Source: Cyanobacteria bacterium T3Sed10_344R1
Lineage (GTDB): Bacteria > Cyanobacteriota > Cyanobacteriia > Phormidesmidales > Phormidesmidaceae
Assembly (NCBI GenBank): GCA_003566335.1
Contig: PXDR01000259.1
Location: forward strand, 1 to 29,176
Direction: 5' to 3'
DNA: 29,176 bases
Shown here: positions 179 to 17,115 of the stretch, one piece after another
Position numbering within the stretch: position 1 is the first letter of the stretch
Layout of the letters: every line of letters starts with the position of its first letter
Program-made: the position numbers and the translations under genes
Notes under the pieces: generated by a model
What the model was told of the DNA's origin: nothing
Databases searched by the model: none
The model's input: only the letters and a program-made list of their open reading frames with translations

Positions 179-1345
179 ATGTCCACCATGGATGATCCAG
201 TTCAAGCTTTACGAGAAAATCTCACGAAGTTACTATCTATCCCCAACCAAAATCCGACATCACCGGGGACGCTCCCTTTTGCCGTAGCGATGTTGACCCT
301 GCCCGAACTGGGCCTGCCAGATTCATTACGCAATAGCCTCAATGTATGGCTACAACATCGAGTGACTGATCTGGCACCGTTGATAGCAGCAGCTCAGCAA
401 GCCGTAAAAGAGTCTGTCCCCCAAGTCTCGACCCAGGCTCATCTGCTGCTGTGGGTACGCACTAGTCCTGAATACGGAAGCCAGGATCGCTATCTGGTCA
501 GTGCGTTCTGTATCCCTGAGCCGAACACCTATAACCCCGTTCATGGAACCGGATGCAAACCTCTCAAGGCTGTGGAAGCTTTTAGAGATGCTAAGAAAGG
601 TGACACCATAGCCAGGGGCGAGATGGAACAGGCCTTACAAGCTTGTCTACAAGAAGTCAGCACCAGCTACCGACAGGAAATCTCTAAGAAAGAACTGATC
701 TTGGAGCTACTTCTGCCCATTCCCCTGCTGAATCACGCCGTTGACCAGTGGGATGAGCAAGCCCCTAAACAAGTCCCGGCCCATCTACAACACCTGCTGG
801 AGGAGGCAGAGGCCGTATCGATCCCTCCCATCGGTTATCGATATCAGGTGGTGCTACGAATGGCCGATCGATTTGATCCTTTCTTTGCTCATCTAAGGCC
901 CTTTTGGGAAACTAAGTGGAAGACTTTGAAAACAGCCATTGACACTCGTTATCAGGCGAAACAGGTTTTGATTTCAGGTCACTGCAGCAACTTTCAGACC
1001 GTCTTTGCCAAAGATGATTGTCTGGGCATGCATTTGAACACAACGCTTCCCAATGCCAATATCGATCAACGGCTGCTAGCCCTGGTTATGGGGGCTACTC
1101 CCACAGCCCTATGGCTGCGGCAACCTCAATCTAAAAATAAATATAAGAAACCCTTTAGCGACTTACTTAAACACCCGGTGGGGGACATAGCCTGTAAAGT
1201 CAGAGAAGCTCGTCAAACCGCTTTCGATAAACGGGGCAAGCCCCACTTTGGCCGTCACTTGGCCCTGGTTTGGGATAACCCCCAACTGGTGCCGCCCGAA
1301 GCCGAAATTGCCAACACCCTCGACATGCCCCAAGAGATGCCCTAG
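179..1345 (+). CDS. VMAP-type protein (vWA-MoxR-associated protein, VMAP-C domain), probably 5'-truncated by the IS
   Basis: Motifs LELLLPIPLLNHAVDQW, YQVVLRM..R, WETKW and LALVWDNP resemble VMAP-C; lies directly upstream of MoxR and vWA genes. Frame is open upstream of the ATG back to 122, the IS junction. Confidence 0.7.
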   Translation: MSTMDDPVQALRENLTKLLSIPNQNPTSPGTLPFAVAMLTLPELGLPDSLRNSLNVWLQHRVTDLAPLIAAAQQAVKESVPQVSTQAHLLLWVRTSPEYGSQDRYLVSAFCIPEPNTYNPVHGTGCKPLKAVEAFRDAKKGDTIARGEMEQALQACLQEVSTSYRQEISKKELILELLLPIPLLNHAVDQWDEQAPKQVPAHLQHLLEEAEAVSIPPIGYRYQVVLRMADRFDPFFAHLRPFWETKWKTLKTAIDTRYQAKQVLISGHCSNFQTVFAKDDCLGMHLNTTLPNANIDQRLLALVMGATPTALWLRQPQSKNKYKKPFSDLLKHPVGDIACKVREARQTAFDKRGKPHFGRHLALVWDNPQLVPPEAEIANTLDMPQEMP

Positions 1346-1347
1346 CC

Positions 1348-2397
1348 ATGACAGACTGGAAAATTTTTACCGGAACCATCAACGACGACGGTACCCTGGC
1401 CCCTGAGCCAGACCGCATCAACGCTCTGCCCGATCCACCCAGTTGGCGATCTTTCAGCCAGGGCAGAAGCGGCGAAACCAAGACGGAGCGGCGAGGCAAG
1501 ACTTTTCAACCCCTCAAGGAAGAAGTCGAGATGGTGAATGCTGCCCTTTATTTGCGGCGACCGCTGCTAGTAACAGGCAAACCAGGCACTGGCAAAACCT
1601 CCCTGGCCTATGCAGTAGCCTATGCCCTGGGGCTGGGGGAAGTGCTGGAATGGTCTATTACCACCCGCACCAGCCTGAAGGATGGCCTTTACACCTACGA
1701 TGCCGTTGGCCGTCTACAAGATAACCAGTTGCGGTTCCAGAGCGAGGGCAAACCTGCAAACGAAAAAGAGGCCCAGAAACGGCTGCAAGAAACCCTCAGC
1801 CGCATTGGCGAATACATTACCCTGGGGCCACTGGGTACGGCCCTGCTACCCTCGGACAAACCCCGAGTGCTATTGATCGACGAAATCGACAAGAGCGACA
1901 TCGACCTGCCCAACGACCTGCTGCATGTCTTTGAAGAGGGCAAGTTTCAGATTCCTGAGCTGGTGCGACTTAAGGACAAGGTGAACGGAAAGATCAAAGT
2001 GCAGACTGCCTTTACCGAAGCCAGTGAGCCTTCCCACGTAGAGATTGAAAACGGCCTGGTACCCTGCACCAACTTTCCTTTTGTGGTCATGACCAGCAAC
2101 GACGAGCGTGACTTCCCCCCCGCCTTTCTGCGGCGCTGCCTGCGGCTGGATATGGCCGACCCCGATCGCAAACGGCTGGAGCAAATTGTTAACGTTCACC
2201 TGCAAGATGCTGGCACCCACGTCAACAAACTGGTGAAACAGTTCTACGACAAGCGCCAACTGGAAAAGGGCATTCTCGCCACCGACCAACTGCTGAATGC
2301 AGTCTACCTGGTCTCTCGCAAGCAGGCTCCCACCGGTAAGACAAAAGACGAGCTGGTTGAGCAACTGCTAAAGTACCTCGATAGCAACCAGGGCTAA
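1348..2397 (+). CDS. MoxR-family AAA+ ATPase
   Basis: ALYLRRPLLVTGKPGTGKT (Walker A), LLIDEIDKSDIDLPNDLL (Walker B), TSNDERDFPPAFLRRC; 2 nt after the preceding stop. Confidence 0.93.
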   Translation: MTDWKIFTGTINDDGTLAPEPDRINALPDPPSWRSFSQGRSGETKTERRGKTFQPLKEEVEMVNAALYLRRPLLVTGKPGTGKTSLAYAVAYALGLGEVLEWSITTRTSLKDGLYTYDAVGRLQDNQLRFQSEGKPANEKEAQKRLQETLSRIGEYITLGPLGTALLPSDKPRVLLIDEIDKSDIDLPNDLLHVFEEGKFQIPELVRLKDKVNGKIKVQTAFTEASEPSHVEIENGLVPCTNFPFVVMTSNDERDFPPAFLRRCLRLDMADPDRKRLEQIVNVHLQDAGTHVNKLVKQFYDKRQLEKGILATDQLLNAVYLVSRKQAPTGKTKDELVEQLLKYLDSNQG

Positions 2398-2401
2398 GCC
2401 C

Positions 2402-5062
2402 ATGAAACAGTCCCTGCAGCAGCGACAGACGATCTATGATTTTGCCAAATTGCTGGACCTGGCAGAGCTGGGCTTTAATGCCGAAGACGTAGCCGATGCA
2501 GCCTGGCTGGCTCAGTTCATTCCTGCTGAGCCGCTGCCAGAGGACTTGGGGGAGCCTGAGATCAGAGACGATGACTCTCAGGACACCCCCATCATTGAGC
2601 GGCGAGAAGGGACCACCACCGAGGGCACCCTCCCAGTCGCCACCACCCCAGCCACATCCCCCCAAGCCAACGAAACCGAGGACGCTCCACCGGCAGGGAT
2701 TCCCATTCAAATACCGGCAGCACCGGCCCTCAGAGCAAGGCGAGACCTGGCCAAGGCCTTGCGCCCGCTCATGCGTAAGGTGCCCTCCCGCACCGCCACC
2801 ATGTTTGATGCCGATGCCACCACCGAACAGATTGCCGAGCAGGGCATTTGGACTGCGGTTATGGCCCCCGCCCCAGAGCGTTGGTTTGAGCTGGCCATTG
2901 TGGTGGAGCAGTCTCGCTCGACGCCTCTCTGGCAAGACACCCTGGCGGAACTCAAACTACTGACCGAACGCCAGGGAGCCTTTCGGCGGGTTAGCACCTG
3001 GCAAATCCAGATGCAGGGCAATGTCCCTGTATTGAATCCCAAGTGGCACCAGGGCGACATTTCCCAACCCACCTGTAACCACAAAACCCTAATTGACCCC
3101 GCCGGTCGAAGGTTGATCTGGCTGGTGAGCGACTGCACCTCTGCCCTTTGGCAGCAGACCCAGATTTACCAGTGGCTGAAGGATTGGGGCAAGCAATGCC
3201 CCACTGCCCTGGTGCAGCTCTTTCCTGGTCGTCTGTGGTGGCGTACTGCTTTGGGAGACGGGATGCCGGTACGGCTTAGCGCCTACACCCCAGGGGTGCC
3301 AAACACTCAGCTTCAGATGTCTGAGGTGCTGCCCTTTAGCGAACTGGCCCAGGCGTTAGGCACTCAGCAAAGCCAGGTGATGCAGGCATTTCATAAGTTT
3401 CAGCAAGAGACCTTGGCGACGGTGCCAGTGGTTAGCTTAGAGGCATACCCGCTAAACCAGTGGGCCAGGGTGATGGCGGGTGGGGGGGATGTCTATACCC
3501 CCGGCTACAGTTTTAACGAAGCCACCCTACAGGCCTATCGAGAGCGCAAACAGGCTACCCCTCCATCTCGCCAGCTTTCGCCCAAAGAACGGGTGCAGCA
3601 GTTTCAAAAAACAGCTTCAGCAACGGCCTTTAAGCTGGCCGGGCTGATGGCGGCGGCCCCCGTTAGCCCGCCAATTATTCAACTGATTCAGCAGACGCTG
3701 CTGCCCGAATCCCAGCAGTTACATGTGGCGGAGGTCTACATGAGTGGCCTGCTCAAGGCCGTTACCCCTGCCGAGGCCAAGCTCCCTTCCCACAAAATTC
3801 AGTACGACTTCCTCAACGACGAAATCCGCGAGCATCTGACGGACTACGTCCCCATTGCCAAGACTGAAGCCGTGCTGGATGCGGTATCGGCCTATATCTC
3901 GGAACGTTTAGGGCTGCAGACCAGAACTTACGAAGCGCTGCTGCTGCTTGATCTGGAAGGTCGCCCTAAAGATCAAGATGTTGTGGTGCCCTTTGCTCGT
4001 ATTGCTAAACGGGCCTTACGACGACTGGGCAGCGACTATGCCGAACTGGCCGACTACATCGATGCACCTGCTCGCCTCCAAATTCCAGTACCGCCTCAGC
4101 CGCCGAGGGATTTTCCTGAACTCAAAACGTTTGAGTTTGAGTATCCGCTGATTGAGATCACGGCAGACCCTGGTGCCCCCTCGCTAGAAACCTTGACCTA
4201 CGAGACTGTGCGGGTCAACAACCGGGGCCAAGTCGTTGAAACCATTCCAGGCACAGCGCAATATTTTCGAGATGTGCTGGGGGCTTCCCCAGACTCTGAT
4301 CCGCCTGTCCTCGACATGGTTGCCATTCCCGGCGGCACCTTTATGATGGGCTCCCCTGACAATGAACCAGGCCGAAGGGATAGCGAAGGTCCTCAGCACG
4401 AGGTGGCGGTGCCTGCGTTCTTTATGGCCAAAACCCCCATTACCCAGGCCCAGTGGCGAGCCGTGGCCCAGCTAGAGCAGGTAGATCGAGAGCTCAATCC
4501 AGACCCGGCCCGCTTCAAAGGCGATGACCGGCCGGTGGAGCAGGTATCTTGGCTCGACGCCATAGAGTTCTGTGCCCGCCTTTCGCGCCTCACCGGGCGA
4601 GACTATCGCCTGCCCACGGAAGCAGAGTGGGAATACGCCTGCCGAGCGGGCACCACTACCCCCTTCAACCTTGGCGAAACCCTCACCGGAGATTTGGCTA
4701 ACTACAATGCTTCGGCCACCTATGCCGAAGAAGCCCAAGGGGAGTATCGCCGAAAAACCACCCCAGTCGGCAGCTGCCCGCCCAATGCCTTTGGCCTGTA
4801 CGACATGCATGGCAACGTGTGGGAATGGTGCCAAGACCACTGGCACGGCAACTATGAAGGCGATCCACCGACCGACGGTAGCGCATGGTTATTTTCTGGC
4901 GAGAGAAATAAGGACTATCGTACTCGTGTGTTGCGGGGCGGTTCCTGGTACCTCAATCCGCGGAACTGCCGCTCTGCCTGTCGCAACGACAACCTTCCGG
5001 GCGCCCGCAACGTCTACTACGGTTTTCGTGTTGTTTGTTCTGCCGCCAGGGCTCTTCCCTAG
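2402..5062 (+). CDS. vWA-like (SAV_2336-type N-terminal) protein fused to a C-terminal FGE-sulfatase/CLec-fold domain
   Basis: N-half: ALRPL, AIVVEQSRS (MIDAS-like), LIWLVSDCTSALW. C-terminus: [45 protein letters not shown]...GFRVVC. Confidence 0.85.
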   Translation: MKQSLQQRQTIYDFAKLLDLAELGFNAEDVADAAWLAQFIPAEPLPEDLGEPEIRDDDSQDTPIIERREGTTTEGTLPVATTPATSPQANETEDAPPAGIPIQIPAAPALRARRDLAKALRPLMRKVPSRTATMFDADATTEQIAEQGIWTAVMAPAPERWFELAIVVEQSRSTPLWQDTLAELKLLTERQGAFRRVSTWQIQMQGNVPVLNPKWHQGDISQPTCNHKTLIDPAGRRLIWLVSDCTSALWQQTQIYQWLKDWGKQCPTALVQLFPGRLWWRTALGDGMPVRLSAYTPGVPNTQLQMSEVLPFSELAQALGTQQSQVMQAFHKFQQETLATVPVVSLEAYPLNQWARVMAGGGDVYTPGYSFNEATLQAYRERKQATPPSRQLSPKERVQQFQKTASATAFKLAGLMAAAPVSPPIIQLIQQTLLPESQQLHVAEVYMSGLLKAVTPAEAKLPSHKIQYDFLNDEIREHLTDYVPIAKTEAVLDAVSAYISERLGLQTRTYEALLLLDLEGRPKDQDVVVPFARIAKRALRRLGSDYAELADYIDAPARLQIPVPPQPPRDFPELKTFEFEYPLIEITADPGAPSLETLTYETVRVNNRGQVVETIPGTAQYFRDVLGASPDSDPPVLDMVAIPGGTFMMGSPDNEPGRRDSEGPQHEVAVPAFFMAKTPITQAQWRAVAQLEQVDRELNPDPARFKGDDRPVEQVSWLDAIEFCARLSRLTGRDYRLPTEAEWEYACRAGTTTPFNLGETLTGDLANYNASATYAEEAQGEYRRKTTPVGSCPPNAFGLYDMHGNVWEWCQDHWHGNYEGDPPTDGSAWLFSGERNKDYRTRVLRGGSWYLNPRNCRSACRNDNLPGARNVYYGFRVVCSAARALP
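4931..5062 (+). repeat. Candidate DGR variable repeat VR1 (3' end of the vWA-CLec gene)
   Basis: Near-identical to 7973-8104. Between 4949 and 5020 the differences are confined to codon positions 1-2 of N-N-C/T codons; 5019-5056 is identical to 8061-8098. Confidence 0.8.
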
Positions 5063-5129
5063 CCCTTTGCCCTCTAGTACTCTTGCACTCTATCTTCTCT
5101 TCTTTACTCTCTCCCCTGGCACGCAGCGT

Positions 5130-5175
5130 CTCGCGCCCAGGCTCTGCCTGGATGCGCCCCCCGAGGCTCCGCCTC
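5130..5175 (+). repeat. REP-like double hairpin downstream of the RAYT gene
   Basis: CCAGGC-TCT-GCCTGG followed by GAGGC-TCC-GCCTC; inverted copy at 5751-5796. Confidence 0.75.
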
Positions 5176-5177
5176 AA

Positions 5178-5711
5178 CTAGCCCAAAATCGTCACCGACA
5201 ACAACCCCTCATCCCCCACGCAGCTTCGATAACTGGAATAGCGCCAGTGGGTCGGGTCATCCACATATCCCCGCTCTACTGGGTTGTTGTGGATATATTC
5301 CAGCTTCTGCTGGAGCATGGTCTCAGAATCAATCAGCTGTGGGTGACTTCCCTCCTGCCAGAGCTGGTATTGCTGCTCCGTCTTGTGCCGCAGCTTAGCT
5401 TCCTCCATCCGCCGCAACCAGCAGCTCTGGGGCCGATTTTCCCGCAGCCAATCCACAACCGACCTAGACGTAAACGATTTGAAGTGGCCAATCTCTTTGG
5501 ATAGGTTCTCCGCTGAGGCGATCAGGTGCAGGGGATTCTCCATGATCACGTAACTGTAAAGGGTCAGCCGTTGCTGGTCTTGGAGAAACTTGAGGGAGTC
5601 CAGCACAATCGAGACCAGGGGTGGCTGGCTAAAAATAGGCATCCACTCAACGGTGGTGCAGGTTAAAAAGTGGGGTTGAGTGCCTATGACTCGATAGCGC
5701 GATCGGCCCAC
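5178..5711 (-). CDS. REP-associated tyrosine transposase (RAYT, Y1/IS200-like HUH family), with an altered HUH motif
   Basis: PHFLTCTTVEW, YVIMENPLHL (family pattern is M.NH.H), FKSFTSR, LWQEG, KLEYIHNNPV, WRYSSY; GTG start; flanked by REP-like hairpins. Confidence 0.85.
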   Translation of the reverse strand: MGRSRYRVIGTQPHFLTCTTVEWMPIFSQPPLVSIVLDSLKFLQDQQRLTLYSYVIMENPLHLIASAENLSKEIGHFKSFTSRSVVDWLRENRPQSCWLRRMEEAKLRHKTEQQYQLWQEGSHPQLIDSETMLQQKLEYIHNNPVERGYVDDPTHWRYSSYRSCVGDEGLLSVTILG

Positions 5712-5750
5712 GGAGGATAATAGAACTCGGCTTTCCTAAGGTTCCCGTTT

Positions 5751-5796
5751 GGAGGCAGAGCCTCCCCGGTGTACCCAGACAGAGTCTGGGCACGAG
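5751..5796 (-). repeat. REP-like double hairpin upstream of the RAYT gene
   Basis: GGAGGC-AGA-GCCTCC and CCCAGAC-AGA-GTCTGGG; its reverse complement aligns with 5130-5175. Confidence 0.75.
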
Positions 5797-5840
5797 ATGG
5801 CACTTACAATAAGTACAACTCCATCGCTCGCAGGCAAACC

Positions 5841-6425
5841 ATGATGGCTCAGGTGTTCTCTCCCCGCATCCACGAGGCCCAGGTCTTCCCCAACGTGGGT
5901 TGGCCCCAGTTTGAGGCGATTGATCGAGCTTTTGATGCCATCCCCGGCGTGCGACTGCGCTACCTCGACAACGCCCTCGAAATCATGCCCATCAGTGAAG
6001 ATCACGAAGACTTCAAAGCCATTCTGCGGTTGCTGCTGGAGGCTTACCTGCGGGCCAACGGCATCCGATTTTATGCTCGCGGTGGCCCCTCCCTGGGGGA
6101 TGAAGCCCTGGGTGCCCGCAGCGAGCCCGACGAGGCCTACAACCTGGGTAGCCGCAAGCCCTACCCCGACCTGGTGCTGGAGGTGGTGATCACCAGCGGC
6201 GGCATCGACAAACTGGAAGGCTACCGTCGTATGGGAGTGGCCGAAGTGTGGTTTTGGGAAGACGGGGTGCTAAACCTCTACGGACTGCGGGACGACGGCA
6301 GCGGCTACGACCAGCTCAACCAAAGTCGGCTGCTGCCCGACCTGCCTCTGGATTTGCTCTGTCGCTACGTCACCTACCACGACCAGTTCGATGCGGTGGA
6401 TGAGTTTCTGCGGCAACTTAGCTAG
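5841..6425 (+). CDS. Uma2-family (DUF820) endonuclease-fold protein
   Basis: RLRYLDNALEIMPISEDHE, SEPDEAY, PDLVLEVVITS, GVAEVWFW. ATG at 5841 preferred over the track start 5769, which lies inside the REP. Confidence 0.88.
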   Translation: MMAQVFSPRIHEAQVFPNVGWPQFEAIDRAFDAIPGVRLRYLDNALEIMPISEDHEDFKAILRLLLEAYLRANGIRFYARGGPSLGDEALGARSEPDEAYNLGSRKPYPDLVLEVVITSGGIDKLEGYRRMGVAEVWFWEDGVLNLYGLRDDGSGYDQLNQSRLLPDLPLDLLCRYVTYHDQFDAVDEFLRQLS

Positions 6426-6455
6426 GGTGGGGTGTTCTTCGAGATGCCCCACCCT
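6424..6455. other. Stem-loop immediately after the Uma2 stop (terminator- or REP-like)
   Basis: Perfect 9-bp stem AGGGTGGGG (6424-6432) / CCCCACCCT (6447-6455); no clear U-tract. Confidence 0.4.
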
Positions 6456-6540
6456 CCCCCTTAACCCCACTCAGGCCCTGGCGCTACTGCTCCAACCCAT
6501 AGGGCTAAACTTGAGACAGATTTCCTTAGTATTGAGTGCC

Positions 6541-6804
6541 ATGGCAAAGACCAACGTTGTCAGCATCACCCAAGAGCGTCAATTTGCCTTCCCACCAGAA
6601 ATTCTCGCAACCTTAGAACCCGGAGACGAGTATCTGCTGTGGCAAACGGACGACACCATTGTGCTGAAGAAAATTACCCAACCCGTCTCCTTAGACACTT
6701 TGTTTGAACGTATTGAAGCCCTTGGCCCTGACCCTGACCAGCCCACAGAAGCCGAAATCTGTGACATTGTAAAAACTATTCGCCATGAACGAGCCCAACC
6801 TTAA
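6541..6804 (+). CDS. AbrB/MazE/SpoVT-type antitoxin
   Basis: From ATG 6541: VVSITQERQFAFPPEILATLEPGDEYLLWQTDDTIVLKKI matches the swapped-hairpin pattern; overlaps the PIN gene start. Confidence 0.75.
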   Translation: MAKTNVVSITQERQFAFPPEILATLEPGDEYLLWQTDDTIVLKKITQPVSLDTLFERIEALGPDPDQPTEAEICDIVKTIRHERAQP

Positions 6805-7225
6805 CATCGTGCTCGACACCAATGTTTGGGTTTCAGCCCTGCTGTTTGGCGGCAAACCAGCTCGCCTGGTTCAACTAGCCCGCAAGGGTCAAGTGCAGAT
6901 TTGCATGTCTCGGGCTTTGCTGAGTGAGCTTGCCGACGTGCTGCACTATCCCAAGTTCCGCTCTCGTCTACAACGCCTTGGCACTACTCCAGAAGCACTG
7001 CTCATCAACGTCTCACGGTTAGTATCTTTTGGCCAAAGTGTCGCCCCCATCAATGTGCCAGAGCTGCGGGACCCCGACGATATTATTGTGGTTGAAGCCG
7101 CGATCGCAGCCCAAGCCATCGCCATTATTTCTGGCGACGACGATCTTCTAGTCCTCAAAAGCGTTGCGGGCATCGATATTCTGACAGCGACCCAATTCCT
7201 TGCCCAGTATTTTCCCGAACTTTGA
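6785..7225 (+). CDS. PIN-domain (VapC-like) toxin
   Basis: IVLDTNVWVSALL, LLSELADVL, RDPDD, IISGDDDLL acidic PIN motifs. Confidence 0.9.
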   Translation: MNEPNLNIVLDTNVWVSALLFGGKPARLVQLARKGQVQICMSRALLSELADVLHYPKFRSRLQRLGTTPEALLINVSRLVSFGQSVAPINVPELRDPDDIIVVEAAIAAQAIAIISGDDDLLVLKSVAGIDILTATQFLAQYFPEL

Positions 7226-7246
7226 GCTAACCCAAAGCCCTGCCCT

Positions 7247-8104
7247 ATGGCCCAACTCACCATCACCCGCCACAAAGCAACCGCGCAATACTTCACCGAA
7301 GACCTGGGCGACGGCATCGGCCTGGATATGGTGCTCATCCCGGGCGGCACCTTTTTGATGGGGTCACCCGAGGACGAGCTAGATCGCTTCAACGACGAAG
7401 GTCCTCAGCACCAGGTGACGGTGCCCACTTTCTTTATGGGCAAGTTCTCCATCACCCAGGCCCAGTGGCGAGTGGTGGCCGAAACCTATGCTCAGGTAAA
7501 CCAGGAACTCGACCCAGACCCAGCAAGCTTCAAAGGCGACAACCGCCCAGTGGAGCAGGTGAGCTGGCAGGATGCGACGGAGTTTTGTGCGCGGCTGAGC
7601 CAGGACACCGGGCGCGAGTACCGTCTGCCCAGTGAGGCCGAGTGGGAGTACGCCTGCCGAGCCGGGACGACTACCCCCTTCCATTTCGGGGAGACCATTA
7701 CCACCGACCTGGCCAACTATCGCGGCGTGGACGATGACAGCATGGACTGGAAAGGCAACTACGGAAAAGGTCCCAAGGGCATTTACCGAAAAGAAACCAC
7801 AGAGGTCGGCAGCTTCCCCCCCAATGCCTTTGGCCTGTACGACATGCACGGCAACGTGTGGGAATGGTGCCAAGATCACTGGCACGACAACTACGACGGG
7901 AATCCGCCGACAGACGGCAGCGCATGGTTATTCTCTGACGAGAGAAAAGAGAAAGATGATCATACTCGCGTGTTGCGGGGTGGTTCCTGGGTCGACCTTC
8001 CGCGGTACTGCCGCTCTGCCTGTCGCCTCTACAACATTCCGGACGCCCGCTACAACAGCGACGGTTTTCGTGTTGTTTGTTCTGCCGCCAGGGCTCTTTC
8101 CTAG
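7247..8104 (+). CDS. Stand-alone FGE-sulfatase/CLec-fold protein, paralog of the C-terminal domain of 2402-5062
   Basis: [45 protein letters not shown]...GFRVVC; clear nucleotide similarity to about 4316-5062. Confidence 0.9.
7973..8104 (+). repeat. Candidate DGR variable repeat VR2
   Basis: Paired with 4931-5062; same codon-position-1/2 difference pattern and identical 3' block. Confidence 0.8.
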
Positions 8105-8304
8105 TCCTTTGCTCTATAGTACTGTTGCACTATACCCTTTCTTCTTTTCTCTCTTCTTTGGCGCGTAGCGCCTCAATTTTTTTTGGCATTTTTGGGGTTG
8201 TCTCAGCCAGCGTCAGTGTCAACAATATACATATTTGGTAGACAGCCCAGGGGCAATAATCTATATTTAGCGTTCAAGCGGCCATCTCCTCTCTCACCAT
8301 CACC

Positions 8305-8694
8305 ATGCCCCAATGGAAACTCTCAACCGAATTCACCTTTGACGCCGCCCACTCCATCCGCGACTACGATGGCCCCTGCGGGCGCATGCACGGTCACACC
8401 TACCGAGTCCGGATTGAGGCAACATCTAGCAAACTCCACTCCTCCCAGTACTGCCCCCACCCGGTCATGGTGGCCGACTTCCGCACCCTACGCTGGGCTA
8501 AACGCGACATGCTAAAAGGAGGGCTTGACCACTGCGTGCTCAACGACGTGCTGCCCGAAGGCTACGAAACCACCGCCGAGATGATCGCCCAGTACATCTA
8601 CGACAAAACCAAAACAGACCTGCCAGAAGGGGTGAAGCTCAAGGTTTGCGTCTCCGAGACACCCAACTCCTGGGCCGAGTATGAAGGCGACTGA
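8305..8694 (+). CDS. queD: 6-carboxytetrahydropterin synthase
   Basis: FTFDAAH, CGRMHGHTY, LDHCVLND, TTAEMIA, VSET; first gene of a queD-E-C run. Confidence 0.92.
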   Translation: MPQWKLSTEFTFDAAHSIRDYDGPCGRMHGHTYRVRIEATSSKLHSSQYCPHPVMVADFRTLRWAKRDMLKGGLDHCVLNDVLPEGYETTAEMIAQYIYDKTKTDLPEGVKLKVCVSETPNSWAEYEGD

Positions 8695-9343
8695 GATGAG
8701 CGTCCCGGCCACGACCTCTCTGATCGCTGAGTTGCCACCAGCGCTGGCCCAAACTTTGCCGATAGTGGAAATGTTCCATTCCATTCAGGGAGAAGGTGCC
8801 TGGGCCGGCACCAATGCCTTCTTCATTCGGTTAGGGGGCTGCGATGTCGGCTGTCCCTGGTGCGACACCAAACAGTCCTGGAGCCCGAAGCGCCACCCCC
8901 AGCGGGAGGTAGGCGAACTGGTCACCGCCGCCAAAGCCGCAAACCCTCAGATTGTAGTCATTACCGGCGGCGAGCCGCTGATGCATGACCTGACGGTGCT
9001 CACCCAGCAACTCAAAGCGGCTGACCTCCAGGTTCACCTGGAAACTTCCGGTGCCCACCCCTTCAGCGGCAGCTTCGACTGGGTCACCTTTTCCCCCAAA
9101 CGGTTCAAGCCCCCCCACCCCAGCATCTACCCCCAAGCCAGCGAACTCAAGGTCGTCGTCGCCGACGAGACTGACCTGGCCTGGGCCGAGCAGCAGGCGG
9201 CCCAACTGTCCCCAACCGTGGACAAACGACTCCAGCCCGAGTGGGAAACGCCGGGGAGTCAGCAGATTGCGTTCAACTTCGTCTTGAAGAATCCAGGGTG
9301 GCGCGTTAGCCTGCAAACGCATAAGTTCTTGGGAGTCCAATAG
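8681..9343 (+). CDS. queE: 7-carboxy-7-deazaguanine synthase (radical SAM); alternative start at 8696
   Basis: [26 protein letters not shown] (CxxxCxxC), [23 protein letters not shown]. Confidence 0.95.
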
Positions 9344-9345
9344 CC

Positions 9346-10068
9346 ATGCCCCAGCCCAAAGCGATTGTTCTGTTGTCGGGGGGGCTAGACTCAGCCACCG
9401 CCGCGGCCCAGGCCATGGCCGACGGCTACGCCCCCATCGCCCTCTCCTTCCGCTATGGCCAGCGCCACGAGCGGGTGCTGGAGGCGGCTCGCCACGTCGC
9501 CGCCCACCTGGGCATTGCCGCCCACCACATCATGGACGTGAACCTTGCCCAGTGGGGCGGATCTTCCCTCACCGACCTGAACGAGACCCTGCCCCAGGAC
9601 GGGGTACAGACCGGGGCGATTCCCTCCACCTACGTGCCAGGGCGCAACACCGTGTTCATTGCCATTGCCCTCTCCCTGGCCGAGGCCAAAGGGGCCGAGG
9701 CCATCTACCTGGGCATCAATGCTGTGGACTATTCGGGCTACCCCGACTGTCGGCCCGAGTATTTGGCGGCCTTTCAACAGCTGGCCCAGCTCTCCTCCAA
9801 GGCCGGGCTAGAGGGCAAAGCCCCTGAGCTAGTGGCCCCCCTAGTAATGGACTCTAAGGTCGATATCGTCCACCGTGCCCTCGGCCTGGGGGTACCCATC
9901 GAAAAAACCTGGTCTTGCTATGAGGGGGACGAGGAACCCTGCGGACGCTGTGATTCTTGCCGAATTCGCGACAAAGCCCTGATTGACGCCGGACGTCCCG
10001 ATCTGGCAACGTTGGTAGGCCGAAGACTATACGCCCAGGAGACCGAATGCCCAACCCCCGTGTCTTAG
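9346..10068 (+). CDS. queC: 7-cyano-7-deazaguanine (preQ0) synthase
   Basis: [41 protein letters not shown]. Confidence 0.96.
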
Positions 10069-12140
10069 TCATTACATCCTGCACTGGGGAGAAGCGCTGC
10101 AAGCCAGAAAACCAGCTCAGACTCGACGATTTTCGAGACCCAAGTCGGCTGCGCGATCGCCAATCTGAACTGGCCGAGTACGCCTGTCAAGCCGGTGAAA
10201 TATATACGGGTATGCAGCATCTACGGCTGATGGAGGGTGTCCAGGCGTTGCGGGAAGCTTTGGGAGTCGATGCATTGGAGGTCGAAATCCTCTCCGCTGG
10301 GTATGGGCTCATTCCAGAGCACCAGAAGATCGTCCCCTACGAGGTCACATTCAATGGGATGAAGAGCCAGGAGGTGGATGAGTGGGCACAACATTTGGGC
10401 GTCCAAGACGCGGTTGAGCAGCGACTGGAGTCGGCAGACCTGGTCTTTTTTTTGTTGGGTGATAACTATTTGCGATCGCTCCAACTGCCCATCCAAACCC
10501 GACCCGACCAAACCCTGGTTTTCCTGGCCTCCGGAGGTTCTGCCAAGAAGCTGCCCGACCTGGCCGCCAAGACGTTTGTGCTGCCCCTCTCCAACCAGGA
10601 GGCAAAGCGTTACCGATACGGTTTGGTAGGGCTGAAAGGCTTTCTCTTCAAGCAGTTTGCCGAAGCTGTGGTAGTTAAACCTGAATTACTGAATCAGGTC
10701 AAAACTAATCCAGAGATCTTTCAGCAGATTATCGACGGCGAAGTTGATCAGCCCTCTGAGCAGTTGGCTTTAACTTCTCTGCTAGACCAGGTACCCACTA
10801 CTCCTAAAGCCTCAAACACTAGCCAGAAGACAACAACTGGTCGGTCTAGCAAAGACGAATTCTTGCCCATTCCCGATGTGCCACCGGCAGCTAATATCCA
10901 CCTGGGAATGCAGTACTACATTCCAGAATGGGATGACCACGTAGACCCCAACTACGACTTCCTAAACGATCGCCTCACCCCAGGGCGTGATCCCCACCAC
11001 GATGAGGTCTATGCCCACCAGATCTACGACGCCCCCAACTACGACGGCATTCTGGTGTCGAAGGTGGTGGTGGACAGCAGCAAGAAAAAGCGAGCACGGG
11101 TCGAGGCAGTTGGCATCCACGACTTCATCCGATATCAGGGGCCGGTCATGGGTGACTGTGGAGCCTTTGGCTACGTCAAAGAGGAAGAGCCTCCTTACAA
11201 TACGGTCGAAATTCTGGACTACTACCAGAACCTTGGCTTTGACTATGGCGTTAGCATCGACCACCTAATCGTCGGTCCTTTTGCTGTACCTGGTATTCGA
11301 GAAAAGCGGTACGAGCTGACTATGAAGAACGCCCAGGAGTTCTTCGAGAAGCATCAGGCTGGGGACTACACGTTCACTCCCATAGGGGTCGCCCAGGGTT
11401 GGAACCCTGAAACCTATGCTGAATCGGTAAAAGAGAACATTCGCGTGGGGTACGACTACATTGCCCTGGGGGGGCTGGCCCGAGCCCAGAGCCGAGAAAT
11501 TGTGGAGATTATGCAGGAGGTGCGGCCCCACCTCACCCCCAACATTCGACTCCACCTGTTTGGGGTGGCTCGGATCAACGCGATTCCGGTATTTCGGCAT
11601 CTGGGCATTACTAGCTTCGACTCGGCCAGTCCCCTGCGGCGAGCCTGGTTGGGTTCTGGGGCAAACTACCACACTGTTTCCAGCAAGATGTATACGGCAG
11701 TGCGGATTCCGCCCGTGGATGGCCATGGGGTGCGGGTGAAGCGGTTGATCGAGGCGGGGGTGGCTGAACGGGACACGTTGAAAGGCCTAGAGCAGAAAGC
11801 GTTGAAGGCGCTGCGGGCCTTTGACCAGGGGGAGTTGGGCCTGGAAGAGGCCCTAGAGTCGTTGCTAGCCTACGACGAACTGCTGGAGCTGCCCAAGGAT
11901 GGCAAGGCTGACCCGGTGGAGCAGGCCAAGCGGCGAGTGAAGCATGAGCGCATGTATCGGGATTTGCTGCGCGATCGCCCCTGGCAGCAGTGCAACTGCG
12001 TGATCTGCCAGGAGGTCGGGGTCGAGGTGGTGATCTTTCGGGGGAACGATCGCAACCGGCGGCGGGGGTTCCACAATACCCGAGCCTTTTATCTGCGGTT
12101 TCAGGAATTGCTGGCGAAGCTGAAGGAAGAGGACACTTAG
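10047..12140 (+). CDS. dpdA: DpdA-type DNA 7-deazaguanine transglycosylase with an N-terminal DUF6884/YaaA-like domain
   Basis: TGT part: [83 protein letters not shown], as in bacterial DpdA. N-terminal ~230 aa: [25 protein letters not shown]. Overlaps queC by 22 nt. Confidence 0.85.
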
Positions 12141-12709
12141 GCGAGCTGGTTGAGGTTCTCGTAGAGATCGGCAATATCGCAGGTTAGGCCAATGCTGCTG
12201 AGTTCGATGGTGTCGCCGCTCCGAAAGACCTGGGGGAGCCACAGGTTGTCAGACTTGCGCTGGAACCGTTCGACCAAAATCTGCTTTTGGTGAACCAGCA
12301 CGTACTCTTCCAAGGTGGGTATAGCTTTGTAGTCGGAGAACTTATCGCCTCGGTCGAAGGCCTCGGTGGAGTCGGAGAGCACCTCGACGATGAGCTTGGG
12401 ATAGAGGATAAAGTCTTCAGCAGAGGCGCGATCGCGCTCATCGCAAGTAACTGCCAAATCCGGGTAGTAGAAGAGGTTAAGGCTGGGCAGGCGCACCTTC
12501 ATATCCACAGCGTAGGCAATGCAGCCGGTGCCCCGCAGATGGCTGACTAGGAGGGCCGAGAGATTGCCCGTGATGATGACATGGGCCTTGCTGGCCCTGG
12601 CCATAGCGACCATCTGCCCCTGTAAATACTCGTGCTTGATGGGGCTGATGCGCTCAAGTTCCAAATAGTCTTCTGGAGTGAAGTAGGCGTGGCTTTTGCT
12701 CAGGATCAT
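12137..12709 (-). CDS. Uma2-family (DUF820) endonuclease-fold protein
   Basis: EDYLELERISPIKHEYLQG, FYYPDLAVTCD, PKLIVEVLSDSTEAFDRGDKF, LEEYVLV. Confidence 0.92.
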   Translation of the reverse strand: MILSKSHAYFTPEDYLELERISPIKHEYLQGQMVAMARASKAHVIITGNLSALLVSHLRGTGCIAYAVDMKVRLPSLNLFYYPDLAVTCDERDRASAEDFILYPKLIVEVLSDSTEAFDRGDKFSDYKAIPTLEEYVLVHQKQILVERFQRKSDNLWLPQVFRSGDTIELSSIGLTCDIADLYENLNQLA

Positions 12710-12728
12710 GGCTCACTCTGCCTTAGGA

Positions 12729-12926
12729 CTACTCTGGCTCATTAATTTTATCGAGGTTGTGCTTCTCAATCAGTCGCTGCTGCTCCGGCTGGGCCAGCCA
12801 AAACTCAAGGGCTTCATTAAACAATTCAGAAATGCTGGTGTCCTTCAGCGCTGCTAACGTCTTCACCAGGGCCGCCTGATCTTCGTCAGCGAACACCCGA
12901 AACTCTGGTTTGCGTTTAGCACCCAT
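12729..12926 (-). CDS. Small ribbon-helix-helix/CopG-like DNA-binding protein
   Basis: Beta strand (PEFRVF) followed by two helices (DQAALVKTLAALKD, SISELFNEALEFWL). Confidence 0.6.
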   Translation of the reverse strand: MGAKRKPEFRVFADEDQAALVKTLAALKDTSISELFNEALEFWLAQPEQQRLIEKHNLDKINEPE

Positions 12927-13008
12927 TGCGACCTTGGCTTGGACTTCACATCTATTGTCCTACGTGGTAAATTAGATTACGGCATTGTGGCATTGTGGCA
13001 GTACAGGC

Positions 13009-13167
13009 ATGATTACTCTGACAACCGACGAAGTGGTTTTACTTAGGTCGCTTCTGACGGCACTTCGGGGCATTAAGGTTCGAGATATCGATCGGGCACT
13101 GGTGATTCTCAGCAAAAATGACAGCGGTAGATCGGCAACCCAAGATTCAGAAGGTGTTGACCCCTAG
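13009..13167 (+). CDS. Small hypothetical protein (52 aa from ATG 13009)
   Basis: Amphipathic helical sequence ITLTTDEVVLLRSLLTALRGIKVRDIDRALVILSK; fills the gap between the RHH and Xre genes. No family recognised. Confidence 0.35.
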   Translation: MITLTTDEVVLLRSLLTALRGIKVRDIDRALVILSKNDSGRSATQDSEGVDP

Positions 13168-13168
13168 G

Positions 13169-13738
13169 CTACGGACTGCCCAGCAGCCGCTCTAAGGCTG
13201 GGAAAAGGAGCTGAAGGGTTTTGCCGTCGATGGATTGGATGCGATCGCACAACCACCGTCGCCGCCCCACCAGATCGGCTGGGGTCGGCGATAGAAAGAG
13301 CGGTTCCGTGTCCAGATCCACCGAGTGCAGCTCAAAAATTTGTCGGAGTTTGGCCTGGTGGGTCTTCTCCGGCACATGCTCCCGTTTCTTCCACTTGGAG
13401 AGGGTGCCCGGCGTAACGCCCAGGGCCTCGGCCAGTTCACCGTTCTCCCCCCGTTGGAGAGTCGAGAGTAGGTACAGCACGTTCTCTTGCCAGAGGTTGA
13501 GCCCACTGTCAGCCAGCAGGTTAGCGAACTGGAGGTCTTCCTCAGGGAGGCCCAGGGCAGTGGCCAGCGATCGCAGCTCCTTCACCGTCGGCTGGCTGCC
13601 CTTCAGGAGTTCGACAGATCTACCGGCATCGGCACCCACCCACTCAGCCACTCGCTCAGCCCAAATCTGCCGGGGCTGCCCTTGTCGCCACATCAAAAAA
13701 CATAGGTTGTGGGCGACAGTGCTCATCGCTAGCAACAA
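13169..13738 (-). CDS. Xre/Cro-like helix-turn-helix regulator, probably with two HTH-like units
   Basis: ELAEALGVTPGTLSKWKK is a typical Xre HTH; PTVKELRSLATALGLPEEDL is a second Xre-like segment; divergent from the helicase operon. Confidence 0.7.
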   Translation of the reverse strand: MLLAMSTVAHNLCFLMWRQGQPRQIWAERVAEWVGADAGRSVELLKGSQPTVKELRSLATALGLPEEDLQFANLLADSGLNLWQENVLYLLSTLQRGENGELAEALGVTPGTLSKWKKREHVPEKTHQAKLRQIFELHSVDLDTEPLFLSPTPADLVGRRRWLCDRIQSIDGKTLQLLFPALERLLGSP

Positions 13739-13823
13739 AATCTCTCAAACTTATTTGATGTTGAAGCTTCTAAACGACAAAAATACTGCATAATTTTTGT
13801 GTTTACCAGCCTACGGTCATCCT

Positions 13824-16181
13824 ATGATAGCCAGTCCTCCCCAATTCAGCGCATCTGCTGTGGCCACCCCGGTCCAGCAGGCAGTCCTGGATCGGGATCT
13901 GCTCAATTCTGGTTTTCACTGCATCCTGCAAATGCCCACGGGCAGCGGCAAAACCTGGCTGGCTGAGCAGGCCATTGGGCACACCCTGGCCCAGGGGAAG
14001 CGGGCCATCTATCTCACCCCCCTACGAGCCCTGGCCGATGAGCTGTGCGATCGCTGGCAGCGGCGCTTTGTGTCCCACCCGGTGGGCGTCTTTACTGGCG
14101 ACTACGCTAGCGGCCAGTATCCCGTCTCCTTCCAAAACGCTCAGCTGCTGGTGATGACGCCAGAAAAGCTGGATGCCTGTACTCGCCATTGGCGATCGCA
14201 CTGGAGTTGGCTCCCCACCGTCGATCTGATTGTGGTAGACGAGTTTCACCTGCTGGGCGACCCCAACCGAGGCCCCCGCCTAGAGGGGGCGCTGCTGCGG
14301 ATGCTGCGCCTCAACCCGTTCCTGCGTATTTTGGGACTCTCGGCTACCCTGGGCAATCGGGTGGAGTTAAGTGACTGGCTGGGAGGGGTAGAGTACGCAT
14401 CGAGCGATCGCCCTATTCCCCTCCAGTGGTCTACGGTCCACTACAAAAAGGCTGACGACAAACCGGCTCTACTGCTGCGGGAGGTGCGGCGTAACCTCGC
14501 CCAGGGCGGCAAAAGCCTTGTCTTTGTGCAGAGTCGTCGCCGAGCGGAGGCCCTGGCCAACCAGCTCCAGGACGCTGGCCTGCGGGTGACCCACCACCAC
14601 GCTGGGTTAGACCACCAATCTCGCCGCCAAGTGGAATCGGACTTTCGCACGGGTCAGCTTGACGTCCTGGTGGCCACCGCCACCCTAGAGATGGGCCTGA
14701 ACTTGCCCGTGCGCCAGGTTATCCTCTACGATCTGCAGGGCTTTGATGGGCAAGACTTTGTGCCGTTGCCGGTCAATAGTGTGTGGCAGCGGGCAGGCCG
14801 AGCCGGTCGCCCGGGCCTGGATAAGTTCGGCGAAGTGGTGCTGATTGCCCCCATCTGGGGACAGGTGGGGCACTACCCCCAAGGCCAATTCGAGCCGCTG
14901 GTGTCTGGGCTGAGTCAGCCTGCGGCTCTGGCCGAACAAATTGTGACCGAGGTGGCCTGCGGCCTGAGCTGTACTGAGGCGCAGCTAGCGGCTAACTTTA
15001 GCCATAGCCTGGCAGCTCGGCAGGGCCGACTGTCCTCCATCCGCCAGCTAGTGGACGAGATGCTGACGGCGGGCATGTTGACCACGGTCGAAGATGGGCG
15101 ACGCATCCTGCTGCGGGGCACTCGGCTGGGCCACGTTGCGGTGCGCCACATGCTGCGGCCCCAGACAGTGCTGCTTTTTCGGCGGGTGTTAGAGCAGTAT
15201 CCCCAGCTCACGTTTCTAGACTTGCTGCTGGTGGCGGCCAGCAGTTCCGACTGCCAGCCTCTGATTCCGGTGGACTTCGAGCAGCTCGACGATCTGGCGG
15301 AGGCTCTCGGTGAAGAACCGTCTGTACTGCTGTCGTTGTCGGAGGTGGGCCTGACACAACTGCTGGGTATTGAGGGCAAACGTCTGCTGGCCGCTATCCA
15401 AACGGCCTTGGTGGGCCGCACCTGGACTCGGACCGGCGATGGGGCGATCGCCGCCGAAACCCACGGCTGCTATGCCTTTGAGGTGCAACGGCTGCGAGAC
15501 TCGTTACAGCGACTGTTGGCTGCCATGGTCGATTTGTGGTCCGTCTCCCAAGAGGGGGAGGTGCCTCCCTCGGAGGGACCGTCGCTGCTGGAGCAGATGC
15601 GGGTACTGGAGAAGATGGTGGCCTGCGGCCTAGATGAGCAGGCCGTGACCCTGACCATGGTGCCCGGACTAGGGGCAAAGCTGGCCCGGCAGCTCAAGGA
15701 AGCTGGTATCCAAGATGTGGAGGATTTGGCCCTGACTGATCCCAGCGACCTACTGGCGGTGCCGGGGGTGGGGCAAAAGCGGGCTGAAAGCTGGTTAGCT
15801 GCCGCTGAGGAGATGGTCGATGGGCACCTTTCGGCGTTTCGCTACCGAGAAGAGGCTTCAGCGAACCGGTTCTGCCCTTCTGACTGGCCCCCCGACGTTG
15901 ACCCATACCGGCTTCGGCGCGCCTTGGACTTAAAGGTAGTCGGACAGGATGGCAATCTGTTCCGCGTTGTGGGGGGGCTTGATCCTCACATCGTGTGGTT
16001 TCGTCAGGGTGGGTTTGTGTGCGACTGCCCCGATTCTAAGCGCCACACCTGTAAGCACATTTTACAGGTGCGGCTGTTTCGGGGAGACGCCCAACTGCGC
16101 CGCCTGGCCCAGGCCTTGTCCGCAGAGAGCAACCCAGACACCCTCGATATCTATAGTCTGTGGTGGAGGGGGAACCGATGA
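13824..16181 (+). CDS. Ski2/Hel308-like SF2 helicase with C-terminal HhH repeats and a SWIM-like zinc finger
   Basis: MPTGSGKT, PLRALA, VDEFH, LSATLG, HHAG, ATATLEMGLNLP, QRAGRAGR; VPGLGAKLARQL / VPGVGQKRA (HhH); CDCPDSKRHTCKH (SWIM-like). ATG 13824 preferred over TTG 13797. Confidence 0.88.
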   Translation: MIASPPQFSASAVATPVQQAVLDRDLLNSGFHCILQMPTGSGKTWLAEQAIGHTLAQGKRAIYLTPLRALADELCDRWQRRFVSHPVGVFTGDYASGQYPVSFQNAQLLVMTPEKLDACTRHWRSHWSWLPTVDLIVVDEFHLLGDPNRGPRLEGALLRMLRLNPFLRILGLSATLGNRVELSDWLGGVEYASSDRPIPLQWSTVHYKKADDKPALLLREVRRNLAQGGKSLVFVQSRRRAEALANQLQDAGLRVTHHHAGLDHQSRRQVESDFRTGQLDVLVATATLEMGLNLPVRQVILYDLQGFDGQDFVPLPVNSVWQRAGRAGRPGLDKFGEVVLIAPIWGQVGHYPQGQFEPLVSGLSQPAALAEQIVTEVACGLSCTEAQLAANFSHSLAARQGRLSSIRQLVDEMLTAGMLTTVEDGRRILLRGTRLGHVAVRHMLRPQTVLLFRRVLEQYPQLTFLDLLLVAASSSDCQPLIPVDFEQLDDLAEALGEEPSVLLSLSEVGLTQLLGIEGKRLLAAIQTALVGRTWTRTGDGAIAAETHGCYAFEVQRLRDSLQRLLAAMVDLWSVSQEGEVPPSEGPSLLEQMRVLEKMVACGLDEQAVTLTMVPGLGAKLARQLKEAGIQDVEDLALTDPSDLLAVPGVGQKRAESWLAAAEEMVDGHLSAFRYREEASANRFCPSDWPPDVDPYRLRRALDLKVVGQDGNLFRVVGGLDPHIVWFRQGGFVCDCPDSKRHTCKHILQVRLFRGDAQLRRLAQALSAESNPDTLDIYSLWWRGNR

Positions 16182-17110: not shown

Positions 17111-17115
17111 AGGCT

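Follow-up and report, generated by a model that had tools for sequence, protein, structure and literature searches.

How did two genes lying about 3 kb apart come to share a 3' end that varies only at selected positions, and does anything still vary it? This question is raised by contig PXDR01000259.1 of Cyanobacteria bacterium T3Sed10_344R1 (assembly GCA_003566335.1), the whole 29,176 nucleotides of which are called the window here. Two genes of the window, termed the long and the short target (Table 1), end in repeats that resemble the variable repeats (VRs) of diversity-generating retroelements (DGRs). A preliminary description, made from the sequence alone, proposed that both genes are diversified in trans from one template and provide a conflict operon with a hypervariable sensor. 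As set out below, the two repeats, VR1 and VR2, are almost certainly genuine DGR variable repeats that derive from a single common template. In the mechanism that we propose, random bases would have been incorporated opposite adenines while a template RNA was reverse-transcribed, and the resulting cDNA would then have replaced the 3' end of each target gene. The genes needed for this, a cassette of avd, a reverse transcriptase (RT) and the template repeat (TR), may well no longer be active in this lineage.

VR1 and VR2 lie within the last 41 codons of their target genes. Codon alignment reproduced exactly the pattern that had been reported for them: 18 bases differ in 12 codons, of which 11 are first and 7 are second codon positions; no third position is affected, every change is non-synonymous, and one of the copies has an A in 14 of the 18 cases. 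Also real is the identical block of 38 nt (5019-5056 = 8061-8098), the nearest differences outside it being at 5018 and 5057. The repeats had been placed at 4931-5062 and 7973-8104; they exist, but the homogenised stretch is slightly narrower and covers 4940-5056 and 7982-8098, or starts at 4928 if one synonymous difference at 4939 is included. Upstream of the VRs the two genes are ca. 12% divergent, and their N-terminal architectures differ. The aligned FGE-domain region of the paralogs (235 codons) has 107 third-position versus 91 first- or second-position differences, which agrees with the earlier remark that changes just upstream are mostly at third positions, and the third-position divergence directly upstream of the VRs amounts to 40-46%. 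When the 39 VR codons (18 first- or second-position versus 0 third-position differences) are set against these 235 upstream codons, the position classes differ with a Fisher p of 3.6e-6, and at the upstream rate of 0.40, 39 codons would be free of third-position differences with a probability of ca. 2e-9. Over ca. 117 nt the two paralogs have become homogeneous except at specific positions, although they are diverged elsewhere.

These positions coincide with template adenines of relatives. The 117 columns of the VRs comprise 31 adenine columns, in which related template repeats have an A, and 86 non-adenine columns. VR1 and VR2 differ in 18 of the 31 adenine columns and in 0 of the 86 others; the probability that 18 variable bases all fall in the former is (31/117)^18, or ca. 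4e-11. A DNA search of 60 genomes of relatives yielded many similar segments, often clustered, and several of these VR-like clusters adjoin reverse transcriptases of DGR size. Complete cassettes consisting of avd, RT and a non-coding AAC-rich template were identified in three genomes (G006, G023 and G042), and the VRs belonging to these cassettes deviate from their template at 10-17 adenines and at 0-4 other sites. The variable bases of the window lie on template adenines in 18 of 18 cases for G006, 18 of 18 for G023 and 15 of 18 for G042 (Fisher p = 1.5e-12, 3.4e-14 and 9e-10, respectively). With the templates of relatives as surrogates, the expectation that the mismatches fall on template adenines is borne out, and close relatives possess both the template and the RT; by the criterion set in the preliminary description, the proposal is thereby not refuted. 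The common backbone, with its 0/86 non-adenine differences, also agrees with the proposal that both genes were written from one template. The restriction of the differences to template adenines and the VR-type 3' context described below are the basis on which we consider the DGR origin of both repeats, and their derivation from one template, to be hardly in doubt.

The nearest homologue of the 285-amino-acid protein encoded by the short target is P0003 (83% identity), the short target of a locus (L039) on an 18-kb contig of Spirulina sp. isolate Cam_3-MAG04 (JBIPSI010000054.1, GCA_044070495.1). The genes of this locus are, in order, Trypco1, trypsin, a 333-aa gene, a MoxR ATPase, vWA and a 623-aa FGE target with VR, followed by avd, RT, the template (8849-8977), a 104-aa gene, a 78-aa gene, ParE and a 284-aa FGE target with VR. 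Nucleotide homology to the window covers the FGE domain of the long target (ca. 84%), VR1 and its flank up to position 5132, resumes at 6495 with the small conserved gene (blastn 87% over 6495-6797; 92% at the amino acid level), and includes the short target; the 3' context of the VRs is the same. Unlike the window, the Spirulina locus has an intact avd-RT-TR cassette between its targets, a Trypco1/trypsin-MoxR-vWA front end rather than VMAP-MoxR, and ParE where the window has a PIN-domain gene. The 1.95 kb of avd-RT-TR correspond to 1.36 kb in the window that encode a REP-associated tyrosine transposase (RAYT; REP, repetitive extragenic palindromic) and a Uma2-family protein. Searches of window positions 5040-6600 with the Spirulina cassette (blastn and tblastx) detected no remnants of avd, RT or TR.

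The Spirulina template differs from the template inferred for the window at 8 of 117 bases, and in 4 of the 86 non-adenine columns. The inferred template would encode W-NNN-PR-N-CRSACR-NNN-(I/N)-P-D-AR-NNNN-GFRVVC, with ca. 1e14 possible proteins per target. Its reconstruction in the preliminary description was essentially right: over the span given there, the template peptide of related avd-RT-TR cassettes on two metagenome contigs (L044 and L046) is the same save for one codon, which is ATT in the inferred template of the window and AAT in the templates of L044 and L046, and which had been left open as A(T/A)T. Both targets would last have been rewritten from one template that was close kin to that of the Spirulina locus. 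Eight homologues of the Spirulina RT have at least 78% identity, of which P0124, P0125, P0127 and P0132 were traced to contigs and P0122, P0123, P0126 and P0128 were left aside. P0123 belongs to the cultured Nodosilinea sp. LEGE 07088, a relative whose cassette is intact and which has it together with target P0018, apparently on a single contig of 9.3 kb. The four contigs did not yield the cassette of the source metagenomes; all are from other samples, and their templates match worse than that of the Spirulina locus.

Besides the repeats themselves, the sequences that follow them are informative. The 3' ends of VRs and TRs were compared for the window and for loci L024, L027, L028, L039, L044 and L046. 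Behind a VR, CCAGG is followed after a few bases by a stop codon inside TAGCCCTTT and then by a pyrimidine-rich stretch resembling CTTTTGCACT; TAGCCCTTT...CTTGCACT is also common to VRs. This VR-type context is shared by 18 VR ends in 9 other loci and is absent from 5 template repeats. All five templates instead continue with CCAGC and then CAGAACTGG...TGGGAAT...GAAGAGTCCAGAC, the template element being TGGGAAT...GAAGAGTCCAG. Four further ends escaped the simple motif filters and were classed as other. In these copies, which are from several genera, VR and template junctions are distinguished by one G/C base and then run into unrelated conserved elements. The VR-type context follows VR1, VR2 and a third VR found on contig C97 of the assembly, whereas motif scans found the TR-type context (CCAGC...TGGGAAT...GAAGAGTCCAG) nowhere in the assembly. 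The context on the VR side may act in target recognition, which makes it a candidate recognition element comparable to the initiation of mutagenic homing (IMH) site. A hairpin following the VR was considered as well and discarded, since the 6-bp AGGGCT/AGCCCT stem of the window copies is, by inspection, not conserved in relatives. The contrasting conserved 3' contexts constitute a simple sequence rule that separates VRs from templates in this clade and that could aid DGR annotation of fragmented metagenomes.

The cassette itself was searched for in the window and in the assembly, which comprises 3.17 Mb in 643 contigs and is 69.5% complete. As the preliminary description had stated, the window has no RT or template that is detectable by repeat search, blastn or profile search. 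It had further expected a template beside a DGR RT and avd elsewhere in the genome, and this was not found: blastn at word size 7 and motif scans gave neither a template nor a third copy of the VR1/VR2 backbone in the assembly, an RVT_1 profile search and tblastn with five DGR RTs gave no DGR RT, and no intact avd was found with Pfam PF05635, PF22296 or tblastn. Pattern scans of JGI metagenome contigs and viral contigs revealed no template for this backbone, and similar scans of GTDB genome contigs for the backbone or the template junction matched only the genome of the Spirulina locus, where the template detected was that locus's own. The sole RVT_1 match of the assembly is an intact 545-aa protein (C627, 263-1900, minus strand), which was rejected as a DGR RT because it is of group II intron type with an H/C-rich, HNH-like tail at the C-terminus. 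A weak avd-like tblastn match on C226 was dismissed as well; it is without an open frame on the matching strand, and the opposite strand resembles, by eye, a GGDEF/EAL-type gene.

The only trace of a cassette is an avd stub on contig C97. This contig begins inside a third FGE gene, the VR of which is ca. 70% identical to VR1 and VR2 and differs from them at many non-adenine sites, so that it would have been written from another template. The copy was rejected as a template itself: it is coding, has a VR-type flank and is followed by the avd stub. Behind the FGE stop codon there is a terminator-like hairpin and then 18 codons of avd (MPDPAELPIIQKTYDLIK, C97:271-327), which break off at nt 325-337, at a dispersed repeat of ca. 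190 nt with copies on eight or more further contigs; beyond this repeat avd was not found to continue. This second locus is either a decayed DGR cassette or a chimeric join. Short dispersed repeats of 55-190 nt with 84-98% identity, similar to miniature inverted-repeat transposable elements (MITEs) or to REP elements, occur on C97 at 337-524 and 1202-1256, where the two copies flank an open reading frame (ORF) of 190 aa, and the family is also present on C338, C187, C232, C462, C468, C459, C192 and C264. An exact look-up of the 190-aa protein in other assemblies returned no record.

A locus orthologous to that of the window is found in a Leptolyngbya genome (G014; L023, C2:249000-264000) that is 99% complete in 10 contigs. 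Similar to the window, it has VMAP (47% identity), MoxR (82%) and both the long and the short target (64-71% and 68%) with Uma2 (82%) between them, and no cassette at the locus; a cognate template was not found anywhere in this genome. Its VR pair, unlike that of the window, shows drift, with 11/86 non-adenine differences, and the backbone is not the one of the window. The VRs of the window differ from the orthologous VRs at 12-16 of the 86 non-adenine sites, compared to 0/86 within the window pair, which indicates that the homogenisation postdates the split of the two lineages, in both of which the locus lacks a cassette. Because no cassette is present at the window locus, the writing would have come from elsewhere, in trans. 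The simplest reading is that the VRs were rewritten after the split by a cassette located elsewhere, from a lineage-specific template homing in trans, as the preliminary description had proposed. The time of the last rewrite is loosely constrained, as zero differences in ca. 86-99 sites bound the divergence only to a few per cent; the intact Spirulina pair has 1/86 non-adenine differences.

Orphaned repeats are also found in other members of the family. In G042, another genome of 99% completeness, a VR pair on two contigs (L025 and L026) shares a common backbone with 2/84 non-adenine differences, and no cognate template for this pair was found in the genome. Within a sample of the same family, 25 of 36 genomes gave VR-like matches and 12 of 36 a TR-side marker, with zero control matches. 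Six of the 16 genomes with at least two VR-like matches are without the TR-side marker, and three of these six are at least 99% complete. These counts and the orphan pairs of G014 and G042 indicate that loss of the cassette with retention of VR-bearing genes is common in the family. At a further locus of the Leptolyngbya genome (L022, C2:167000-177000), avd and a shortened RT (295 aa versus ca. 352) are located at 4254-6290 between two VR-bearing targets; neither a template nor a TR-side marker is present, and the arrangement resembles a cassette shorn of its 3' part.

The locus could be retrieved from other assemblies through exact look-up of the neighbouring PIN protein, which led to ERZ27301261-63 in ENA and to the Logan runs SRR7083929/31/34 (L029-L034). 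VR1 and VR2 have the sequence of the window wherever these six assemblies cover them, and contigs pass unbroken through both; two of the ENA contigs span both target genes and have distinct flanks. The 90%-identity clusters of both target proteins have one member each among ca. 15 billion proteins.

An explanation other than a DGR would be that gene conversion homogenised the C-termini of the paralogues and that positive selection then acted on ligand-contact codons. The paralogues are 3 kb apart in direct orientation, which makes conversion physically possible, and ligand binding is expected in the region of the variable residues. Conversion would erase differences too, however, and all 18 new substitutions would have had to arise within the 31 template-adenine columns, at the probability given above, and never at a third position; moreover, it leaves the VR-specific 3' element and the homology to the VR/TR sets of relatives without a role. 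We consider it very improbable. Still less credible is an assembly artefact, in which the assembler would have presented two alleles of a single gene as separate VRs or would have created them by chimeric joins. A fragmented metagenome-assembled genome invites this suspicion, and Logan contigs break in the shared 38-nt block and in FGE repeats. Yet three independent ENA assemblies and three Logan runs match the locus base for base, the two spanning ENA contigs have separate flanks, and the two genes are divergent upstream of the VRs and dissimilar at their N-termini.

The present state of the system is harder to judge. We lean to the reading that the lineage has lost or silenced its cassette and that both VRs are now frozen, at a probability of roughly 0.55. 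This leaning follows from several observations: no part of a working cassette was found, the second locus appears decayed, the orthologues are orphaned, loss is frequent in the family, and the repeats are invariant. Several observations weigh against it. With an assembly of 69.5% completeness in 643 contigs, the absence of a cassette is weak evidence, and cassettes in metagenomes are often found on contigs of 1.5-3.5 kb (L040-L046), which binning can miss. The perfect identity of the VRs at non-adenine sites fits recent homing, the intact Spirulina pair having 1/86 differences; the truncation of avd on C97 could be a chimeric join at the repeat; and minority alleles would be hidden in the six assemblies, which give consensus sequences and probably stem from one or two studies. 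A serious contender, to which we assign somewhat less than an even chance, is therefore that the cassette persists in the unassembled ca. 30% of the genome, on an unbinned short contig or on a mobile element, and that both VRs are still diversified in trans. The VR pair is as clean as that of the intact Spirulina cassette, the VR-type 3' context is intact at both repeats, the genome is incomplete, and trans targets are documented in Thiohalocapsa (PMC10907252). What speaks against continuing diversification is that TR, RT, avd and the TR-side RNA marker are all missing from 3.17 Mb, that the traced nearest homologues of the Spirulina RT are all from other samples, that the VRs are invariant on unbroken contigs in six assemblies, and that the orthologous locus of the 99%-complete Leptolyngbya genome is orphaned. 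Of the earlier proposal that both genes are diversified in trans from one template, the DGR origin and the single template stand, and diversification at the present day is unproven. It is conceivable, if rather unlikely, that templates come from outside the chromosome for a limited time, carried by mobile or horizontally exchanged avd-RT-TR cassettes, which rewrite resident sensors and then disappear. This idea is suggested by VR pairs that are nearly perfectly homogenised without a cognate template, namely that of G042 and possibly that of the window genome. If transient supply, and not just recent loss, were the case, sensor repertoires would be reset episodically rather than diversified continuously.

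Apart from the state of its cassette, the locus is organised as follows. The first three genes of the operon are VMAP, MoxR and the long target, with the FGS domain (FGE-sulfatase) at the end, which is the gene order of VMAP ternary systems. The earlier assignment as a conflict operon is sustained by the VMAP-C and MoxR-type genes in this order, and the operon is of the VMAP-MoxR conflict type. The MoxR assignment is based on the AAA and AAA_5 matches, a weak bpMoxR match and the Leptolyngbya orthologue in the same operon position. The long target occupies the position of the vWA component, and its N-terminal region (residues 27-504) is of the SAV_2336 type (NCBIfam NF041121, E 1.5e-119). For a vWA domain in the 886-aa protein, Pfam gave no match at thresholds up to E 5, nor did a PDB sequence search; because such a domain is not detectable, membership in the VMAP ternary systems is argued from VMAP-C, the MoxR-type ATPase, gene order, protein size and the SAV_2336-type domain. 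The location of the VRs at the C-termini of CLec-fold proteins, as had been proposed, is in agreement with the PF03781 matches of both targets, and the PDB sequence matches of the 285-aa protein include PvdO, FGE and the Treponema denticola variable protein 1 (2y3c, E 1.4e-18). The two targets would represent the sensor ends of a VMAP-MoxR ternary conflict locus, a long one in the position of the vWA component and a short one consisting of the CLec domain only.

Table 1. Features of the target locus in the window (positions in the 29,176-nt stretch)
Feature	Position	Strand	Basis or remarks
VMAP gene (vWA-MoxR associated protein; VMAP-M1 and VMAP-C domains)	179..1345	+	Pfam PF20028 E 8e-29, PF19963 E 6e-9
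MoxR-type AAA+ ATPase gene	1348..2397	+	Pfam AAA / AAA_5 E ~1e-8, weak bpMoxR match
Long DGR target, 886 aa	2402..5062	+	FGE-sulfatase/CLec domain at residues 638-878, Pfam PF03781 E 3e-59
VR1	4940..5056	+	18 differences to VR2, each at a column with A in related templates; 0/86 elsewhere; template homology may begin at 4928
VR-type 3' context of VR1	5057..5132	+	Stop codon and conserved element CCAGG...TAGCCCTTT...CTCTTGCACT; direct repeat family D1
REP-associated tyrosine transposase (RAYT) gene	5178..5711	-	NCBIfam NF047646 E 3.4e-26, 91.9 bits (cut-off 80)
Uma2-family endonuclease-like gene, between both targets	5769..6425	+	Pfam PF05685 E 4e-12
Small conserved ORF	6391..6804	+	Residues 51-136 92% identical to the 104-aa gene 3' of the template in L039 (blastp)
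PIN-domain gene, toxin-like, directly 5' of short target	6785..7225	+	Pfam PF13470 E 1.5e-21
Short DGR target, 285 aa, FGE-sulfatase/CLec domain only	7247..8104	+	Pfam PF03781 E 4e-58
VR2	7982..8098	+	As for VR1 (comparison of both repeats, related templates)
VR-type 3' context of VR2	8099..8174	+	Direct repeat family D1, shared VR-end element

Directly 3' of the short target, positions 8305-19440 of the window are occupied by a 7-deazaguanine gene island. It encodes a QueD-like PTPS, a radical-SAM QueE-like protein, QueC, a DUF6884-TGT fusion of 697 aa, Uma2 and a helix-turn-helix (HTH) protein, followed in order by a superfamily 2 (SF2) helicase, TGT and another SF2 helicase. One of the retrieved contigs (L029, from ERZ27301263) equals the window through both VRs, bar one mismatch near 3251-3500, is ca. 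14% divergent from it at 8500-10058 and beyond, in the Que genes, and then continues with genes for an acetyltransferase, TetR and a glyoxalase; a second contig (L030) diverges similarly from 14251. The divergence of L029 reflects either recombination between strains at the border of the island or chimerism of the contig.

DGRs of cyanobacteria with VMAP/MoxR-vWA ternary conflict systems as their targets were reportedly described by Vallota-Eastman and co-workers in 2020. The VMAP-MoxR-vWA ternary systems have a strict gene order, and the length of the cyanobacterial vWA component peaks at ca. 850 residues (Kaur et al. 2020, PMC7159879), which the long target of 886 aa fits in size and position. 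C-terminal FGS domains are known from VMAP systems, and ca. 80% of the cyanobacterial and gammaproteobacterial ones have a link to a DGR, the template of which lies close by or in another part of the genome (PMC7159879). Most cyanobacterial DGRs of clade 5E diversify such sensors, typically with one long and one short CLec target, and both trans targets and cassettes disrupted by mobile elements are documented (Doré et al. 2024, PMC10907252). The window resembles these systems in the order of its VMAP gene, its MoxR gene and a component of ca. 850 residues with the VR in an FGS/FGE CLec end, and in a second, short CLec-only target, the AAC-rich template that is reconstructed for it and the filamentous cyanobacterial hosts. 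It differs from them in that avd-RT-TR is missing at the locus and in the assembly, that RAYT and Uma2 lie between the targets and that no vWA is detectable by Pfam in the 886-aa protein.

Similar to the window, Thiohalocapsa PB-PSB1 harbors targets that have no RT or TR nearby and agree with a template at every non-adenine site, and some of its cassettes have been interrupted by mobile elements or MITE-like repeats (PMC10907252); unlike in the window, that genome also yielded the template, and diversification was measured there at the level of reads. The prototypic variable proteins Mtd of the Bordetella phage BPP-1 and TvpA of Treponema denticola share with the window proteins a CLec fold that varies near its C-terminus in AAY codons, specifically at adenines, and TvpA is an FGE-type CLec protein that matches the short target in sequence (the 2y3c entry mentioned above). 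Mtd is a phage tail-fibre protein and TvpA a surface lipoprotein, both served by cassettes in cis, whereas the window encodes conflict components of cytoplasmic type without a cassette. In many genomes of the family, VR-bearing targets are kept while avd-RT-TR is gone or displaced by mobile elements; annotation as a DGR target from the sequence pattern alone is therefore no proof of continuing hypermutation. DGR-diversified VMAP/MoxR sensors have already been published (PMC7159879, PMC10907252), and what the window adds in kind is confined to the lack of a cassette and the presence of a RAYT/Uma2 block where it would lie. Within this described class, it represents a clean and statistically strong case of DGR-written sensors and contributes one more cyanobacterial lineage.

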